From Escherichia coli (GTDB lineage: Bacteria; Pseudomonadota; Gammaproteobacteria; Enterobacterales; Enterobacteriaceae): a DNA stretch of 64,000 nucleotides. Where the stretch lies: assembly GCF_003334315.1 (NCBI RefSeq), contig NZ_QOWR01000008.1, one strand, 5' to 3'. Shown one piece after another: positions 7,688 through 62,179 of the stretch (position 1 is its first letter; every line of letters begins with the position of its first letter). The notes below the pieces were generated by a model. It saw nothing but the letters and a program-made list of their open reading frames with translations. It was not told the DNA's origin and ran no database searches. Position numbers and translations under genes: made by a program.

Positions 7688-9579
<1,892 letters not shown>

Positions 9580-9666
9580 ATTCACCCCGAATGTTGTTAT
9601 GTCTGTTTGCAGTGTAGAGCCATTGTTTGTAAACACAAAAACAACTCCGCTACATCTTATTCTTAT

Positions 9667-10218
9667 TTAATATATATCAGAAGCAGGCAGGCTGGAGGAT
9701 TTCTGCACAAGTCCGGTACAGGTTTGGCGCTGATAGTGTTGATACTTCCGTAACGCGATGCGGTAATTGTTGGTGCTGGTGGTGGGCAGCCACGGGGCGA
9801 GGATTTCATCAAGGAAACCGTCCTGCAGCTGATCGAGGGAAATATTTTGCTCGTGTAGATGATTCCCCAAACGGCGCAGACGAACGACATATTCACGCAC
9901 CGTACCTGGGCTCATTTCAGTTTGCTCAAAAAGAAATTGCTTAAAGCCGATAATATCGAAAAAATCACTCTGCGTTTTGCAATGTAAATCACCGCAAAAT
10001 CGGCACAATGCCGCCCATGATTTTTGTTCCGTTTGCCAGCCCTTTTCATCAAGCAGCGTGTCCAGGCGGGAAATCTCGATTTTATTCACTATTTTGCCGT
10101 CGCGAACGAGGGTAATGCGATCGAGTAATTTACGGCAATGCGCGCAATGGGTCTGGCTGTGTTTAAAGTCTTTAAGATAGCGGCTTAATGGCCGTCTTTT
10201 CAGGTGCTGCACCATCAT
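9667..10218 (-). CDS. fliZ: flagellar regulatory protein FliZ
   Basis: MMVQHLKRRPLSRYLKDFKHSQTHCAHCRKLLD...; 183 aa after trimming 12 upstream codons. Confidence 0.9.
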   Translation of the reverse strand: MMVQHLKRRPLSRYLKDFKHSQTHCAHCRKLLDRITLVRDGKIVNKIEISRLDTLLDEKGWQTEQKSWAALCRFCGDLHCKTQSDFFDIIGFKQFLFEQTEMSPGTVREYVVRLRRLGNHLHEQNISLDQLQDGFLDEILAPWLPTTSTNNYRIALRKYQHYQRQTCTGLVQKSSSLPASDIY

Positions 10219-10263
10219 TAAGAACTCCTGGTAGTCAAAGTTAAAGTGCGGCATTTACTGACG

Positions 10264-10983
10264 TTATAACTTACCCAGTTTAGTGCGTAACCGTTTAATA
10301 GCCTGGCTGTGTAACTGACTGACCCGCGATTCCCCGACCTCCAGCACTGCACCAATCTCTTTGAGATTCAGCTCTTCCTGGTAATAGAGGGTTAATACCA
10401 GTTTTTCGCGCTCCGGCAACGTTTCGATGGCTTCCATCACCCGCTGGCGCAGATTATTGTCCAGCAGTTGTTGTAGCGGGTTTTCTCGCTGATGATCATC
10501 AGTAACCAGTTCGATGCTATCGCCGTGCTCTTCGCGCCACTCATCGTAGGAGAAGAGCTGGCTGTTATTGGTGTCGAGCAACATTTGGCGATAATCGGCA
10601 ATATCGATCCCTAAACGTTCCGCTACCTCAGTTTCCGTGGCGTTGCGGCCAAGTTCCTGCTCCAGTTGCCCTATTGCCTGTGCCACTTCACGCGCGTTGC
10701 GTCGCACGCTGCGCGGCACCCAGTCACGGCTGCGAAGTTCATCCAGCATAGCGCCACGGATACGCTGCACTGCGTAAGTTGTAAATGCCGTTCCTTGTAG
10801 GGCGTCATAGCGTTCGACGGCATTAAGTAACCCAATGCCGCCCGCCTGTAGCAGATCGTCAAGTTCCACGCTCGCGGGCAGTCGAACCTGCAGGCGCAAT
10901 GCTTCGTGACGCACCAGCGGGACATAACGCTGCCACAGCGAGTGTTTATCCATTACACCTTCAGCGGTATAGAGTGAATTCAC
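10264..10983 (-). CDS. fliA: flagellar sigma factor sigma-28
   Basis: 239 aa MNSLYTAEGVMDKHSLWQRYVPLVRHEALRL...; sigma-70 family regions 2 to 4. Confidence 0.95.
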   Translation of the reverse strand: MNSLYTAEGVMDKHSLWQRYVPLVRHEALRLQVRLPASVELDDLLQAGGIGLLNAVERYDALQGTAFTTYAVQRIRGAMLDELRSRDWVPRSVRRNAREVAQAIGQLEQELGRNATETEVAERLGIDIADYRQMLLDTNNSQLFSYDEWREEHGDSIELVTDDHQRENPLQQLLDNNLRQRVMEAIETLPEREKLVLTLYYQEELNLKEIGAVLEVGESRVSQLHSQAIKRLRTKLGKL

Positions 10984-11103
10984 GATAAACAGCCCTGCGT
11001 TATATGAGTTATCGGCATGATTATCCGTTTCTGCAGGGTTTTTAATCGGACGATTAGTGGGTGAAATGAGGGGTTATTTGGGGGTTACCGGTAAATTGCG
11101 GGC

Positions 11104-11129
11104 AGAAAAAACCCCGCCGTTGGCGGGGA
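11104..11129 (-). terminator. fliC rho-independent terminator
   Basis: minus strand reads CTTCCCCGCCAACGGCGGGGTTTTTTCTGCC. Confidence 0.7.
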
Positions 11130-11160
11130 AGCACGTTGCTGACAAATTACCATTCATGTT

Positions 11161-11258
11161 GCCGGATGCGGCGTAACGCCTTATCCGGCCTACAAAAATC
11201 TGCAAATTCAATAAATTGCAATTCACCTTGTAGGCCTGATAAGCACAGCGCACCAGGC
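11161..11258. repeat. REP/BIME palindromic repeats
   Basis: GCCGGATGCGGCGTAACGCCTTATCCGGCCTAC and an inverted copy GTAGGCCTGATAAGCACAGCGCACCAGGC. Confidence 0.6.
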
Positions 11259-11301
11259 AATTTGGCGTTGCCGTCAGTCTCAGTTAATCAGGTTACGACG
11301 A

Positions 11302-12612
11302 TTAACCCTGCAGCAGAGACAGAACCTGCTGCGGTACCTGGTTGGCTTTTGCCAGTACGGAGTTACCGGCCTGCTGGATAATCTGCGCTTTCGACATGTT
11401 GGACACTTCGGTCGCATAGTCGGCGTCCTGAATACGGGACTGCGCTTCAGACAGGTTGGTAGTGGTGTTGTTCAGGTTGGTGACTGCGGAATCCAGACGG
11501 TTTTGCACCGCACCGAGGGAGGAGCGGAAAGTATCAACCTGTGCAATCGCTTTGTCTAAAAGTGCCAGTGGATCAGCAGAAGAAGCCCCTGAGAACTGTG
11601 CAGTCGGTTTTGCTGTTGATAATTCAACAACAACTTTATTATCTGTTGCTTTTGCCGCAGTATTATCATCAAGTGCCTTTGAAACCGTTGTAGCGTAGTT
11701 TTTACCTTGGAATGTTACATATCCCGCAGCCGAGCCGTCAGAGTCAGCGGCAACTTTAATCAGTTGATCTTTCTGAGTAGCCGCAGTCGTTAGTCCATTA
11801 TCGGTGTCTGTGTATTCGACATCGGCTTTATTCAACGTGACTTTGCCGTCTGTATGATTAATCGACGCGGAGTAGAAATCATTGCCGGATTGAACGACGA
11901 ACTGTGATGTAGCAGCCCCTTTCGCATCCAGAGTGTTGTGTAACGTCAGGCTAGAAACATCGACTGTTTTACCTGTCGCAGTAGTCAGATCTTTCGCAAC
12001 AGCAGTGAAATCAACACCAACAGGTTTTGCCCCGGCGGCACCGGTAATTTGAGTAATGGAATCACTAACGTTAAGTGACTGACCCGAAACGGAGAAACCG
12101 TTCAGTCCTAATGTAGAAGAGTCAATCTTCTGCAAATCAATGCTAATAGTCTGCCCATCATTCGCGCCAACCTGAATCTTCATCGAACCATCTTTCGCCA
12201 GCACATTCACGCCGTTGAACTGGGTCTGACCGGAAACGCGATCAATTTCATCCAGACGGGATTTGATTTCGTCCTGGATTGAAGACAGGTCAGAATCAGA
12301 GTTAGTCCCGGTCGTCGCCTGAACGGTCAACTCACGCACACGCTGCAAGTTGTTGTTGATTTCAGACAGCGCGCCTTCAGTGGTCTGCGCCAGAGAGATA
12401 CCGTCGTTGGCGTTACGTGCGGCCTGAGTCAGACCTTTGATGTTAGAGGTGAAGCGGTTAGCAATCGCCTGGCCCGCAGCGTCATCTTTAGCGCTGTTAA
12501 TGCGCAGACCAGAAGAGAGGCGCTCGATAGAAGTCGACAGCGCAGACTGGTTTTTGTTGATGTTGTTCTGAGTGATCAGCGAGAGGCTGTTGGTATTAAT
12601 GACTTGTGCCAT
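11302..12612 (-). CDS. fliC: flagellin (H-antigen), non-K-12 allele
   Basis: MAQVINTNSLSLITQNNINKNQSALSTSIERLSSGLRINSAKDDAAGQAIANRF... ends ...NQVPQQVLSLLQG; conserved D0/D1 termini with a divergent central region; 436 aa against 498 in K-12. Confidence 0.9.
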   Translation of the reverse strand: MAQVINTNSLSLITQNNINKNQSALSTSIERLSSGLRINSAKDDAAGQAIANRFTSNIKGLTQAARNANDGISLAQTTEGALSEINNNLQRVRELTVQATTGTNSDSDLSSIQDEIKSRLDEIDRVSGQTQFNGVNVLAKDGSMKIQVGANDGQTISIDLQKIDSSTLGLNGFSVSGQSLNVSDSITQITGAAGAKPVGVDFTAVAKDLTTATGKTVDVSSLTLHNTLDAKGAATSQFVVQSGNDFYSASINHTDGKVTLNKADVEYTDTDNGLTTAATQKDQLIKVAADSDGSAAGYVTFQGKNYATTVSKALDDNTAAKATDNKVVVELSTAKPTAQFSGASSADPLALLDKAIAQVDTFRSSLGAVQNRLDSAVTNLNNTTTNLSEAQSRIQDADYATEVSNMSKAQIIQQAGNSVLAKANQVPQQVLSLLQG

Positions 12613-12688
12613 GATTTCTTTTCCTGTTTTCAAGTCTACGGTTTAAGTATTGGGCTTCCACCCTTCGGCTTCGTCGCCGTCAACCCTG

Positions 12689-12715
12689 TTATCGTCTGGT
12701 CACTCACAACCTTTA
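12689..12715 (-). promoter_or_regulatory. sigma-28 promoter of fliC
   Basis: minus strand TAAAGGTT-N11-GACGATAA, matching the sigma-28 consensus TAAAGTTT-N11-GCCGATAA. Confidence 0.6.
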
Positions 12716-12788
12716 GAATTTTTTTCTAGCGGTCGAAATACTCCCCTTCCTCGTTGCTGTTCGTGCCATTAAGGCAAAAAATAAATCG

Positions 12789-12815
12789 TAAACTTTACCC
12801 CGCTTACGCCGATAA
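12789..12815 (+). promoter_or_regulatory. sigma-28 promoter of fliD
   Basis: TAAACTTT-N11-GCCGATAA about 45 nt upstream of the fliD ATG. Confidence 0.6.
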
Positions 12816-12859
12816 CCCCGGTATTCGTTCTATACACGTCGCATGATTAAGGAAACTAT

Positions 12860-14275
12860 ATGGCTAGTATTTCAACGCTTGGGGTTGGGTCGGGGCTGAA
12901 CTTAAGCAGCATCCTTGACAGTCTGGAGGCGGCAGAAAAATCTACCCTGACGCCGATATCAAAACAGCAAAGCTCTTACACCGCGAAACTGAGCGCCTAC
13001 GGGACGCTGAAAAGTGCACTAGAGAGTTTCCAGACAGCCAACACAGCACTGAATAAAGCCGATTTATTTACCGCCACCTCAACCACCAGCAGTTCATCGG
13101 CTTTCAGCGCCACCACCACGGGCAGCGCGATTGCTGGGAAATACACCATTAGCGTTAGCCAACTGGCGCAGGCACAGACGCTGACAACAAAAAATAGTCA
13201 AAAAGACAGTAAAGCCGCCATCGCCACCAGCGATAGCGTACTAACCATCCAGCAAGGTGGCGGTAAAGATCCGGTCACGATTGATATCAGCGCGGCTAAC
13301 TCGTCACTTTCCGGCATTCGCGATGCCATTAACAACGCCAAAGCTGGTGTCAGCGCCAGTATCATCCATGTGGGTAACGGCGAGTATCGTCTGTCCATCA
13401 CTGCTAACGATACGGGCAGCGATAACGCTATGAAACTTAGCGTCAGCGGCGACAGCGCCCTGGAAAGTTTTATGGGTTACAACGGAACGTCGGGTGATAG
13501 CAGCAATGGCATGATTGAAAGCGTCACTGCGCAAAACGCCAAACTGACAGTCAATAACGTTGAGATTGAAAACAGCAGTAACACTATCAGCGACGCGCTG
13601 GAAGATATCACCCTCAACCTGAATGACGTCACCACCGGTAATCAGACACTGACCATCAGTAAAGACACATCCAAAGCTGAAAATGCGGTTAAAACGTGGG
13701 TGGATGCCTATAACTCATTGCAGGATACGTTCAGCAGCTTAACCAAATACACCGCTGTCGATGCCGGAGCAGAGAGTCAGGACTCCAGCAATGGCGCATT
13801 ACTCGGTGACTCCACACTGCGTACCATCCAGACTCAGCTTAAAACCTTGCTCGCCAATACTCACAGCAGTTCAAACTATAAAACGCTGGCACAGATTGGC
13901 ATTACCAGCGATGCCAGTACCGGCAAGCTGGAAATCGCGACCGACAAACTGCAAACGGCGCTAAAAAAAGATGCCGCTGGCATCAGTGAAATGTTTATAG
14001 GTGACGGTAAAAGTACAGGGGTAACCACCGGCATTAGTAGCAACCTAACCAGTTGGCTCTCTTCCACCGGGATAATCCAGGCCGCAAAAGATGGCGTCAG
14101 CAAAACGCTGAATAATTTGACCGACCAGTACAACGCAGCCAGTGAGCGTATCGATACCTTAATGACGCGCTATAAAGCCCAGTTCACCCAATTAGATGTG
14201 TTAATGAACTCGCTTAACTCCACCAGTAGCTATCTGACACAGCAATTCGACACCTCAAATAGCAACTCGAAATAA
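12860..14275 (+). CDS. fliD: flagellar filament cap protein
   Basis: 471 aa MASISTLGVGSGLNLSSILDSLEAAEKSTLTPI... Confidence 0.9.
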   Translation: MASISTLGVGSGLNLSSILDSLEAAEKSTLTPISKQQSSYTAKLSAYGTLKSALESFQTANTALNKADLFTATSTTSSSSAFSATTTGSAIAGKYTISVSQLAQAQTLTTKNSQKDSKAAIATSDSVLTIQQGGGKDPVTIDISAANSSLSGIRDAINNAKAGVSASIIHVGNGEYRLSITANDTGSDNAMKLSVSGDSALESFMGYNGTSGDSSNGMIESVTAQNAKLTVNNVEIENSSNTISDALEDITLNLNDVTTGNQTLTISKDTSKAENAVKTWVDAYNSLQDTFSSLTKYTAVDAGAESQDSSNGALLGDSTLRTIQTQLKTLLANTHSSSNYKTLAQIGITSDASTGKLEIATDKLQTALKKDAAGISEMFIGDGKSTGVTTGISSNLTSWLSSTGIIQAAKDGVSKTLNNLTDQYNAASERIDTLMTRYKAQFTQLDVLMNSLNSTSSYLTQQFDTSNSNSK

Positions 14276-51964: not shown

Positions 51965-52160
51965 GCTATGAACGCCATCACCATTTTCCCCTCGATTATA
52001 AAACTTGAGTTATTCAGTAGTCTCCCCTCTTGCAACTCACACCCAAAACTGCCTAACGAAAAGTTATTAATTTTCAATCATATTGCTATCAGGATTTACA
52101 TTTTTTCGCTGTGCTAGAAAGGGCGCATTTATGTTAGCTCGTTCAGGGAAGGTAAGCATG

Positions 52161-59234
<7,074 letters not shown>

Positions 59235-59253: not shown

Positions 59254-59285
59254 AAAGAGTGCTCCATTCGGAGCACTCTTTTTTA
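59254..59285. terminator. bidirectional terminator between yeeJ and yeeL
   Basis: AAGAGTGCTCC-ATTC-GGAGCACTCTT followed by TTTT. Confidence 0.7.
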
Positions 59286-59495: not shown

Positions 59496-60548
59496 TCATA
59501 TTCTCGCCAAAACACTTTTTAATGCCTTTGCGAATTCATCCAGACTTATATTGTCAATTTTTTGCCCAACGACGACTGACTCCGAAACATCGGCCATTGC
59601 GGGCCATCGCGTTTTGTAATCAGCATAAATTGCAACAACGGGAGTATTATAGGCACTTGCCATATGTAATATTGAGGTGTCAGGAGTTATTGCGATATAA
59701 GCATCTTTTATGATTGCTGCTGAACGTTTAATCGAGGGTGATAAGGATAAACGGTAGACATTATTATAACAATCCACTAATACCCTGGCTTTATCTTCCC
59801 CTTTTGGTCCATGAACGATCACTATTGGTATATCTGTTTCACTTTGAATTTTTGCTATTAGATTTTCTGCAATCGATAATGAAAATGTACGTTCCTGCGA
59901 GCTACCTTCTAAATTAAGCGCAATGTAAGATCCTAACGATCGCATTTCCTCGCGCACCTCATCGAGTACATCCTCACTTAGTGGCAATTCATATATTGGC
60001 CTGACTGCTGGAAAACCCGCCTCACGCATCATAAATGCCCATGTCATGGGTACAGGAGCCCGGATATTCTGATCCATCCGGGACGCGTTCTTGCACAAAG
60101 GGGAGTAGCACTTCATGGTTAAACCAACAACCTGAAAATTCGTTTTTGCTTTCAACTGACTGATAAATATCATCGTTTTCAGGTTCTTTTTACGCATCGC
60201 CTCTATACAAAGATCCGGCGTACCGTATTTCTGTGTTATGTTCTTTGCTAAATCTTTTATTTCTTTTAATGTTGCGTGATCCTGCATAGTCATTGTGACT
60301 AATGTTAATTTAGTCTTTTCAAGTTTAAGTGCATTAAACACTTCTAAATTAATTGTCGACGTAACAATTAAAAGATGCTTAATTTTATGCAATTCAAGCG
60401 CCCGAATAACAGGAAAGATGGCCATAGCATCGCCAATCTGGTCGGGAATATGGATGACAACAAAGTCTGTTTTTTCAATATTGAAATTATAAGCTTTATA
60501 ATCGTAGTAACTAAATGCAATACGTCTCAACAATGATGCTAAAAACAT
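59496..60548 (-). CDS. yeeL: glycosyltransferase family 9 (ADP-heptose heptosyltransferase-like), intact
   Basis: 350 aa; N-terminal HIPDQIGDAMAIFPVIRAL and C-terminal ITPDTSILHMASAYNTPVVAIY resemble WaaC/WaaF/WaaQ motifs; low GC content; a pseudogene in K-12. Confidence 0.75.
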   Translation of the reverse strand: MFLASLLRRIAFSYYDYKAYNFNIEKTDFVVIHIPDQIGDAMAIFPVIRALELHKIKHLLIVTSTINLEVFNALKLEKTKLTLVTMTMQDHATLKEIKDLAKNITQKYGTPDLCIEAMRKKNLKTMIFISQLKAKTNFQVVGLTMKCYSPLCKNASRMDQNIRAPVPMTWAFMMREAGFPAVRPIYELPLSEDVLDEVREEMRSLGSYIALNLEGSSQERTFSLSIAENLIAKIQSETDIPIVIVHGPKGEDKARVLVDCYNNVYRLSLSPSIKRSAAIIKDAYIAITPDTSILHMASAYNTPVVAIYADYKTRWPAMADVSESVVVGQKIDNISLDEFAKALKSVLARI

Positions 60549-60862
60549 ACCTAACCTCGCCTCCCTACTGGTTATAATGCAATGCAGTCTATCAGACTCA
60601 TCAGGGTGCCATTTTGTGCATATGCGGACTTTTATGTTTCATATCTCTAACCTGTGGGTCCTCTGCTTAATCCTTAAACAACACCAGCAACTCCTGCGCT
60701 TTCATCTTCCATCGAATTTTTCATGTTGCCGCTAATCAGCCATAAAATCATTTGCAGATGCGCTCTGTCGAGGTAGTCTCATAAGGTTCGTTTATAGATC
60801 GACGGCAATGTGAGTTACCTTTTCCATACTAATTATAAAAAGACAGTACAAACAGGATCATT

Positions 60863-62179
60863 ATGGACTCCACGCTCATCTCCACTCGTCCCGATGAAGG
60901 GACGCTTTCGTTAAGTCGCGCCCGACGAGCTGCGTTAGGCAGCTTCGCTGGTGCCGTCGTCGACTGGTATGATTTTTTACTCTATGGCATCACCGCCGCA
61001 CTGGTGTTTAATCGCGAGTTTTTCCCGCAAGTAAGCCCGGCGATGGGAACGCTCGCCGCATTTGCTACCTTTGGCGTCGGATTCCTTTTCCGTCCGCTCG
61101 GCGGTGTCATTTTCGGTCACTTTGGCGACCGACTGGGACGTAAGCGCATGTTAATGCTGACCGTCTGGATGATGGGCATCGCGACAGCCTTGATTGGTAT
61201 TCTTCCTTCATTCTCGACCATTGGGTGGTGGGCACCTATTTTGCTGGTGACACTGCGTGCCATTCAGGGATTTGCCGTCGGCGGCGAATGGGGAGGCGCG
61301 GCGTTGCTTTCCGTTGAAAGTGCACCGAAAAATAAAAAAGCCTTTTACAGTAGCGGTGTACAAGTTGGCTACGGTGTAGGTTTACTGCTTTCAACCGGAC
61401 TGGTTTCATTGATCAGTATGATGACGACTGACGAACAGTTTTTAAGCTGGGGCTGGCGCATTCCTTTCCTGTTTAGCATCGTACTGGTACTGGGAGCATT
61501 GTGGGTGCGCAATGGCATGGAGGAGTCCGCGGAATTTGAACAACAGCAACATTATCAAGCTGCCGCGAAAAAACGCATCCCGGTTATCGAAGCGCTGTTA
61601 CGACATCCCGGTGCTTTCCTGAAGATTATTGCGCTACGACTGTGCGAATTGCTGACGATGTACATCGTTACTGCCTTTGCACTTAATTATTCAACCCAGA
61701 ATATGGGGTTACCGCGCGAACTTTTCCTCAATATTGGTTTGCTGGTAGGTGGATTAAGCTGCCTGACAATTCCCTGTTTTGCCTGGCTTGCCGATCGTTT
61801 TGGTCGCCGCAGGGTTTATATCACAGGTGCGTTAATCGGAACGTTGAGCGCATTTCCTTTCTTTATGGCGCTTGAAGCACAATCTATTTTCTGGATAGTT
61901 TTCTTCTCCATAATGCTGGCAAACATTGCGCATGACATGGTGGTGTGTGTGCAACAACCGATGTTTACCGAAATGTTTGGTGCCAGTTATCGCTATAGTG
62001 GCGCTGGAGTCGGTTATCAGGTTGCCAGTGTGGTTGGCGGTGGATTTACACCTTTTATTGCCGCTGCACTCATCACTTACTTTGCCGGGAACTGGCATAG
62101 CGTCGCCATTTATTTGCTGGCTGGATGCCTGATTTCCGCAATGACCGCTTTGTTGATGAAAGACAGTCAACGCGCTTGA
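60863..62179 (+). CDS. shiA: shikimate/dehydroshikimate MFS transporter
   Basis: 438 aa with 12 transmembrane segments and MFS motif GHFGDRLGRKRM. Confidence 0.9.
   Translation: MDSTLISTRPDEGTLSLSRARRAALGSFAGAVVDWYDFLLYGITAALVFNREFFPQVSPAMGTLAAFATFGVGFLFRPLGGVIFGHFGDRLGRKRMLMLTVWMMGIATALIGILPSFSTIGWWAPILLVTLRAIQGFAVGGEWGGAALLSVESAPKNKKAFYSSGVQVGYGVGLLLSTGLVSLISMMTTDEQFLSWGWRIPFLFSIVLVLGALWVRNGMEESAEFEQQQHYQAAAKKRIPVIEALLRHPGAFLKIIALRLCELLTMYIVTAFALNYSTQNMGLPRELFLNIGLLVGGLSCLTIPCFAWLADRFGRRRVYITGALIGTLSAFPFFMALEAQSIFWIVFFSIMLANIAHDMVVCVQQPMFTEMFGASYRYSGAGVGYQVASVVGGGFTPFIAAALITYFAGNWHSVAIYLLAGCLISAMTALLMKDSQRA

Follow-up and report, generated by a model that had tools for sequence, protein, structure and literature searches.

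YeeL, a GT9 protein encoded beside the adhesin gene yeeJ of Escherichia coli, and its similarity to the lipopolysaccharide core enzyme WaaU

The closest described counterparts of the gene studied here fall into two groups, namely enzymes of the lipopolysaccharide (LPS) core and enzymes that modify adhesins. WaaU (formerly RfaK) adds the terminal heptose HepIV to GlcIII in the outer core of Escherichia coli K-12 LPS (PMC4651636, PMC4483631), while WaaC, WaaF, and WaaQ are heptosyltransferases I, II, and III (structures 2H1F, 1PSW). The second group, the bacterial autotransporter heptosyltransferases (BAHTs) with TibC and AAH (4RAP, 4RB4), shares a GT-B-like catalytic core and displays an N-terminal beta-barrel of flattened shape (residues 1–97 in TibC), an atypical four-stranded N-lobe and, inserted in the C-lobe of TibC, an iron finger with four conserved cysteines (339, 342, 358, 370) (PMC4358343). 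This iron finger, which contacts the beta-helix passenger of TibA, and a beta-hairpin thumb are both needed for formation of the dodecamer and for TibA heptosylation (PMC4358343). In this study, we analysed a stretch of 64,000 nt from E. coli (RefSeq assembly GCF_003334315.1, contig NZ_QOWR01000008.1; hereafter the window), in which the gene yeeL lies tail-to-tail with the inverse autotransporter adhesin gene yeeJ. The original prediction had proposed that YeeL heptosylates YeeJ and had named an LPS core modification as the alternative. According to our analysis, YeeL is, judged by sequence, closest to WaaU among the characterised enzymes, and the addition of heptose to the LPS core is its most likely function, a reading that we hold with about even confidence.

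YeeL compared with characterised glycosyltransferases

In the list of open reading frames (ORFs), yeeL (59496..60548, minus strand) appeared as a single unbroken frame of 350 amino acids (aa) with an ATG start. The ORF of yeeJ runs on the plus strand and stops at 59234, which makes the two genes convergent. Position, intactness, and tail-to-tail orientation had been described correctly in the original prediction. The proposed heptosyltransferase-like character of the protein, which belongs to glycosyltransferase family 9 (GT9), was likewise borne out, as both the N-terminal GD motif (D40) and the C-terminal D-T-S...H motif (D290/T291/S292/H295) are present. Pfam revealed a weak match to Glyco_transf_9 (PF01075; 29.5 bits vs a cut-off of 22), restricted to residues 232–321, and the same precomputed hit was found in all YeeL orthologues. 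Scores with the NCBIfam models TIGR02193 (37.8 vs 185.3 bits), TIGR02195 (19.6 vs 134.6), and TIGR02201 (16.9 vs 170.2) and with the PRK heptosyltransferase models (12–15 bits, cut-offs of 437–569) stayed below the respective cut-offs, so that YeeL can be classified as a GT9 protein, but not as an orthologue of WaaC, WaaF, or WaaQ.

For comparison with single enzymes, we used TibC, the sequence of which was verified against 4RB4 and 4RAP, and WaaC, WaaF, WaaQ, and WaaU from the K-12 waa cluster, together with YeeL profiles of three depths (orthologues only; orthologues plus relatives above 189 bits; broad family). WaaU ranked first and TibC last with all three. Scores of WaaU rose from 21.6 bits with the orthologue-only profile to 59.6 bits with the intermediate and 97.7 bits with the broad-family profile (model 4–342 to WaaU 14–351), those of TibC being -3.5, -2.9, and -2.9 bits, respectively. 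By hhalign, WaaU reached a probability of 97.3% over residues 19–346 and TibC 1.5%. Searches of PDB sequences with single YeeL and with the orthologue profile resulted only in marginal matches to WaaF and WaaC (E of 0.1–1.9), and TibC was not found in the PDB profile search with YeeL orthologues at E≤10.

Like YeeL, WaaU belongs to GT9, and both proteins align over their full length, including an N-terminal extension that has no counterpart in WaaC, WaaF, or WaaQ. They further resemble each other in the charge pattern of their lobes and in the low GC content of their genes (31% for waaU vs 38.5% for yeeL), and waaU adjoins waaL in K-12, just as distant relatives of YeeL adjoin or are fused to WaaL-like genes. 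The differences are also clear. BLASTP with YeeL aligned only a 43-residue segment of WaaU, an Arg replaces the phosphate-binding Lys, YeeL carries a loop (141–163) with conserved Cys, and, while waaU is part of the waa cluster next to waaL, yeeL is an orphan between yeeJ/asnT and shiA that is found in E. coli of all core types. WaaC, WaaF, and WaaQ are only 12–14% identical to YeeL, which differs from them by its extra N-terminal extension of about 25 residues with an invariant D-Y motif. That a glycosyltransferase which modifies the core can be encoded away from the main waa operons has a precedent in WaaH (YibD), an orphan, conditionally expressed GT2 enzyme that adds glucuronic acid; its parallel with YeeL is one of logic, not of homology. 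Transcription of waaH is induced by phosphate starvation (PMC4651636).

An alignment of 25 YeeL orthologues displayed 91 invariant positions, including the motifs HIPDQIGDAM (33–42), R220-T-F, P289-D-T, H295, and K312-T-R-W and hence the individual residues D40, R220, D290, T291, and H295. With a shallow orthologue profile against single WaaC or WaaF sequences, hhalign aligned the C-terminal motif alone, and useful residue mapping needed intermediate homologues from an exhaustive profile search. The alignment of YeeL with the K-12 sequences of WaaC, WaaF, WaaQ, and WaaU, bridged in this way, paired D40 with D13 of WaaC (the catalytic base), R220 with K192, D290/T291/S292 with D261/T262/G263, and H295 with H266. 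Based on these pairs, the catalytic and donor-binding apparatus of YeeL is intact.

The structural model of YeeL is consistent with this assignment. Its predicted GT-B fold with two Rossmann lobes is closest to solved GT9 structures, and it starts with a helix (2–13) followed by a regular N-lobe of alternating strands and helices with at least five strands. Past the KTRW motif, the protein continues for 35 residues, without an insertion. The isoelectric points of the N- and C-lobe were calculated as 9.66 and 4.95 for YeeL and as 9.3–10.0 and 5.8–6.2 for WaaC, WaaF, WaaQ, and WaaU, compared to 7.2 and 8.0 for TibC. Such a pattern of a basic N-lobe and an acidic C-lobe would suit docking of the enzyme on an anionic glycolipid of the membrane. 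YeeL harbours Cys residues at 114, 147, 152, and 260 only. Of these, C114 and C147 are invariant, C152 is almost so, and all three lie in or adjoin the unplaced N-lobe loop, in the region that binds the acceptor in GT9 enzymes. They could constitute a site for a metal or an element of acceptor recognition that has no counterpart in characterised heptosyltransferases.

None of the testable features that define the BAHTs was found in YeeL. The likeness to TibC and AAH consists of the GT-B-like core, the use of ADP-heptose, which is assumed for YeeL, and a gene position beside an adhesin gene. Unlike these enzymes, YeeL with its 350 aa is predicted to begin with a helix and a regular Rossmann N-lobe in place of the beta-barrel and the four-stranded lobe. 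An iron finger is missing, as there is no insertion in the C-lobe and the few Cys residues lie elsewhere, and the predicted secondary structure of the C-lobe revealed no insertion for a beta-hairpin thumb. The neighbouring adhesins differ as well, since TibC and AAH act on beta-helix passengers, while YeeJ consists of an array of immunoglobulin (Ig)-like domains. The proposed analogy of yeeL to AAH and TibC thus failed on profile similarity, barrel, iron finger, and thumb alike.

Relatives of YeeL and a candidate role in the LPS core

Orthologues of YeeL form a narrow group with 53–73% identity, which was found in other Escherichia species, E. albertii, Hafnia paralvei, Pseudocitrobacter, an Enterobacteriaceae isolate, Erwinia, Pantoea coffeiphila, and Rosenbergiella. 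Nine genera or species groups are represented at this level of identity, and the aligned orthologues come from two Enterobacterales families. Beyond this group, identity falls abruptly to 28%. The exhaustive profile search resulted in 33 proteins at E≤1e-30, and gene context was examined for six full-length relatives outside Enterobacterales, four of which lie beside or are fused to WaaL-like ligases. The Carnimonas relative (P0108, 291 bits) is surrounded by genes for a second GT9, two GT2, a GT4, two Wzy_C (WaaL-like), a WecG, and a Bac_transf protein. Another (P0110) adjoins an epimerase gene and genes for GT2, Wzy_C, Bac_transf, and GLF, and a third (P0257) adjoins Wzy_C, Bac_transf, WecG, and GT2. 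In the fourth case (P0136/P0265), one protein of 777–780 aa fuses a ligase-like Wzy_C membrane domain to a YeeL-like GT9 domain (P0265 at L034 8001–10343), and its gene adjoins hldD, hldE, and a lipid A acyltransferase gene. A fifth relative (P0116) directly follows a GT8 gene.

As a Rosetta-stone fusion, P0136/P0265 connects the YeeL clade with the final stages of LPS core synthesis. Taking the contexts with ligase and LPS genes together with the position of waaU beside waaL in K-12, the clade is linked with the completion of the LPS core close to ligation, and within it the enterobacterial YeeL group is a derived and relocated member. The GC content of yeeL lies within the range of the outer-core waa genes (27–40%). 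We suggest that YeeL is a cytoplasmic GT-B glycosyltransferase of the monomeric type, belonging to CAZy/Pfam family 9. Its acidic C-lobe would bind ADP-heptose via R220, P248, D290-T291-S292, and H295, while its basic N-lobe (pI 9.7) would dock on the anionic surface of the inner membrane. The acceptor would be a glycan with a lipid anchor, most likely an LPS core sugar, and D40 of the invariant HIPDQIGDAM motif could serve as general base for inverting transfer. The core would thereby receive an accessory heptose, probably only under certain conditions or in sub-stoichiometric amounts, a substitution that K-12 would be without because of a stop codon at Q235. The putative LPS core modification, named as the alternative in the original prediction, is better supported than heptosylation of YeeJ.

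Several observations weigh against this role. The similarity to WaaU is remote, as its score with the orthologue-only profile indicates, and the scores of YeeL with the curated WaaC, WaaF, and WaaQ models (12–38 bits) are far under their cut-offs (135–569). WaaC K192, the phosphate-binding Lys, is replaced by an invariant Arg (R220), and the N-lobe loop 141–163 with its conserved Cys was not placed by AlphaFold (pLDDT of about 33). ADP-heptose as donor is assumed from membership in GT9 alone. The sixth relative, P0258, though close to YeeL and from outside the order, is an orphan. In Enterobacterales, yeeL itself is an orphan situated at a great distance from the waa cluster. Its neighbours vary (shiA, genes for YdeE-like and NepI-like transporters of the major facilitator superfamily (MFS), tonB, uvrY), so that gene context does not directly connect it with LPS in these hosts. 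Finally, the literature on the function of yeeL revealed only its use as a pseudogene integration site and one passing mention.

This context also bears on the possibility that YeeL is an active GT9 enzyme with an acceptor outside the LPS core, i.e., a lipid-linked glycan (enterobacterial common antigen, O-unit, or capsule), a protein, or a small molecule handled by the neighbouring MFS transporter, which we regard as possible, if rather doubtful. It would agree with the orphan position of yeeL, which lies away from the waa cluster in all Enterobacterales genomes that were examined, and with the N-lobe loop and its conserved Cys, which is unlike the characterised LPS enzymes. An MFS gene flanks yeeL in three independent arrangements (ShiA in the window, 60863–62179; YdeE-like or NepI-like in L002 8636–9841 and L003 8674–9846), more often than a rough chance estimate. 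A single conserved MFS partner was rejected, since ShiA, the YdeE-like, and the NepI-like protein share no detectable similarity, and a fourth candidate MFS neighbour (c66) reads like a hydrolase, judged by its sequence alone. Neighbours of yeeL were tonB in E. albertii, uvrY in Hafnia, and one of the two unrelated efflux MFS genes in Erwinia and Rosenbergiella. With unrelated MFS proteins in some lineages and tonB, uvrY, hchA-like, or defence-type genes in others, no partner gene is conserved beside yeeL. The distant relatives in LPS core and ligase clusters and the basic N-lobe and acidic C-lobe, which match the LPS enzymes, argue against an acceptor outside the core as well. Moreover, to our knowledge, every characterised GT9 enzyme except the BAHTs acts on LPS or lipooligosaccharide cores.

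Relationship between yeeL and yeeJ

The yeeJ gene (52158..59234, plus strand; start taken from the K-12 record) encodes an inverse autotransporter with an IAT_beta barrel and 13 Ig-like Big_1 domains according to Pfam. Its frame stays open as far as an upstream TTG at 52083, while the start annotated by comparison with K-12 is the ATG at 52158. That YeeJ is rich in Ser and Thr, as had been pointed out, holds true (20.8% Ser+Thr). Together with the adjacency of the two intact genes in the window, the complete GT9 catalytic set of YeeL, and the GT-B-like catalytic core shared by the BAHTs (PMC4358343), this would suit an enzyme dedicated to O-heptosylation of Ser/Thr in the YeeJ passenger in the cytoplasm before export, as in the pairs AAH/AIDA-I and TibC/TibA. 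We consider such a role very unlikely. Apart from the Cys content and the normal Rossmann N-lobe of YeeL and from the iron finger of TibC, which recognises a beta-helix passenger and not an Ig-like array, the arrangement of the genes speaks against it. Both are separated by a spacer of 261 nt, in which a strong hairpin terminator (59254..59281, plus strand; 12-bp stem, A-tract before, T-tract after) follows just past the yeeJ stop. This hairpin separates the two transcription units, so that yeeL is not co-transcribed upstream of yeeJ.

Within E. coli, the state of both genes was assessed by coverage counts in 5,426 complete genomes, an exact 57-mer count for the K-12 allele, and a sample of 14 annotated genomes, in which the frames were rechecked. 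The yeeL locus was present in 5,344 of the 5,426 genomes, with at least 80% query coverage in 4,936, while the first 2 kb of yeeJ (LysM and beta-barrel regions) reached at least 80% coverage in only 2,882. Most genomes below this threshold retain a remnant of 330 bp. It follows from these counts that at least 2,054 genomes keep a full yeeL locus without the 5' 2 kb of yeeJ and hence without a usable yeeJ. These numbers are in line with a previous report of full-length yeeJ in only 40% of genomes (PMC5595812).

In the sample, yeeL was intact in 12/14 and yeeJ in 3/14 genomes. Ten genomes combined an intact yeeL with a frameshifted or truncated yeeJ and two carried both genes intact, while K-12 showed the reverse, i.e., a broken yeeL with an intact yeeJ, and HN257 had lost both frames. 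A yersiniabactin island at asnT was detected in seven of the ten genomes with intact yeeL and broken yeeJ; with the island at this tRNA, the 5' part of yeeJ is deleted, leaving a remnant ORF of about 750 nt and a pseudogene fragment. In MG1655, YeeJ is surface-exposed and promotes biofilm formation (PMC5595812), although yeeL is a pseudogene in K-12. Tool results thus showed that yeeL is independent of yeeJ, with no co-retention within E. coli, and the co-occurrence expected from the original prediction was not found.

The K-12 allele itself was described correctly as a pseudogene, as the record of strain RV308 flags an internal stop. Compared to yeeL of the window, RV308 revealed a single CAA to TAA exchange at codon 235 (Q235) and 13 amino acid differences. 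The exact K-12 57-mer including TAA235 occurred in 765/5,426 genomes, which identifies the K-12 lesion as the allele of a lineage and not as the norm. In E. coli, an unbroken yeeL is the usual condition and no peculiarity of this window. Three Genome Taxonomy Database (GTDB) representatives (CP178308, CP178306, CP182557) also have broken shiA and amn genes and were not used to judge the pseudogene state.

Such lesions raise the question of whether yeeL is a functionless relic that decays in E. coli and is intact here by coincidence. Besides the at least 765 genomes that carry the 57-mer, insertion sequences in some strains (H1, H8, H28), many truncated copies in Shigella, and the low GC content, which suggests a foreign origin, would agree with decay. 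The gene lies in an AT-rich segment, as had been noted before, with a GC content of 38.5% compared to 49.7% for yeeJ, 50.7% for shiA, and 49.4% for the entire window. We nevertheless judge a relic to be highly improbable. The frame is intact in the 12 sampled genomes across phylogroups, the 91 invariant positions with all catalytic motifs are kept in orthologues from two families, and dN/dS among E. coli yeeL alleles ranged from 0.10 to 0.23 (median 0.18), which indicates purifying selection on yeeL, including lineages without YeeJ.

Outside E. coli, tblastn with YeeJ detected nothing within 10 kb of yeeL in the examined orthologue loci beyond E. coli and Shigella, so that no yeeJ lies near the orthologous gene in at least nine further genera or species groups. 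In Pseudocitrobacter cyperus, the gene order is shiA (leftward), yeeL (rightward), tRNA-Asn, and mtfA (leftward), without yeeJ, while nac and cbl intervene in the yeeL region of P. faecalis and Enterobacteriaceae G50. In E. ruysiae and in a further two Escherichia lineages distinct from E. coli, yeeL is located between an hchA-like gene and tRNA-Asn/mtfA, and in Escherichia sp. MOD1-EC7003 (YeeL 93% identical) it directly abuts tRNA-Asn/mtfA. In such relatives, tRNA-Asn lies 55–400 nt from the yeeL stop codon (L017 11104–11179; L013 11155–11230; L010 1567–1642), whereas in E. coli the whole 7-kb yeeJ intervenes between them (51769–59234 of the window). The asnT gene of the window (51769..51844, plus strand), which yeeJ separates from yeeL in E. 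coli, is described as a hot spot where acquired DNA inserts (PMC5595812). Judged by gene order in genomes without yeeJ, the ancestral order was probably mtfA, tRNA-Asn, yeeL, and the arrangement is best explained by the simplest history, in which yeeL already stood beside asnT when the 7 kb of yeeJ were inserted at that tRNA.

Altogether, heptosylation of YeeJ by YeeL, as originally proposed, is contradicted by the convergent genes with a terminator between them, the absent BAHT modules, the lack of yeeJ beside non-coli orthologues, and the missing co-retention. The wider notion that YeeL glycosylates a protein, be it YeeJ where both genes exist or another envelope protein, is likewise improbable to a high degree. 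The loop 141–163 with its conserved Cys leaves some room for it because it is unlike that of any characterised enzyme, but all comparative and structural evidence points elsewhere.

Further differences between the loci were observed. In E. ruysiae and related lineages (L013, L012, L014, about 8850–13960), the yeeL/tRNA-Asn/mtfA block is inverted relative to shiA-amn compared to E. coli and Pseudocitrobacter; the multiple tRNA-Asn copies of the region could mediate such inversions. Escherichia whittamii (L011 11316–21035) carries four large convergent ORFs (584, 690, 818, and 1107 aa) after yeeL in place of tRNA-Asn/mtfA. They were rejected as a fragmented adhesin, as they gave no tblastn match to YeeJ and, judged by sequence alone, resemble a defence-like island with proteins of helicase and ATPase type. 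Two metagenome bins assigned to 'Candidatus Nanosynbacter sp.' and 'Proteobacteria bacterium' (L006, L009) carry the E. coli arrangement amn-shiA-yeeL(-yeeJ), with YeeL 99% and 96% identical to that of the window and ShiA and Amn 99–100% identical, which looks like bin contamination. Presumably a contaminant as well is P0076, listed in nr as 'glutathione transporter [Rattus norvegicus]', which shares 75% identity with YeeL.

Upstream region of yeeL and meaning of the finding

Upstream of yeeL, an AT-rich intergenic region of 314 nt (60549..60862; GC of 0.36) separates it from the divergent shikimate transporter gene shiA (60863..62179, plus strand), which is conserved in Enterobacteriaceae. 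This region presumably holds both divergent promoters. A scan for sigma-70-like promoters resulted in no match within 60549..60862, and the nearest match on the minus strand (60530–60501) lies inside the first yeeL codons. Without a usable match in the intergenic region, the scan did not locate the yeeL promoter; sigma-70-like matches in the scanned stretch were not commoner than in shuffles. Terminator-like sites in the scanned stretch numbered 5, compared to 1.5 expected.

In RefSeq, the product already bears the name 'glycosyltransferase family 9 protein', and there are many intact copies. YeeL is an as yet uncharacterised representative of a known enzyme family. For the adhesin, our results mean that YeeJ should not be presumed to be a glycoprotein on account of its neighbour, and that a functional link is only weakly indicated when two genes are neighbours at a tRNA integration hot spot. 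If protein glycosylation were true after all, YeeL would be the first protein-modifying GT9 enzyme outside the BAHTs and YeeJ the first glycosylated inverse autotransporter. If YeeL adds a core sugar, most natural E. coli would carry an LPS core modification that has been overlooked because K-12, the strain that defined the core glycoforms, has a nonsense allele. A near-universal modification of this kind would be invisible in K-12, the allele of which is separated from the intact frame by one codon, and it might have effects on O-antigen ligation, on sensitivity to serum or phages, and on the transfer of K-12 LPS data to wild strains.

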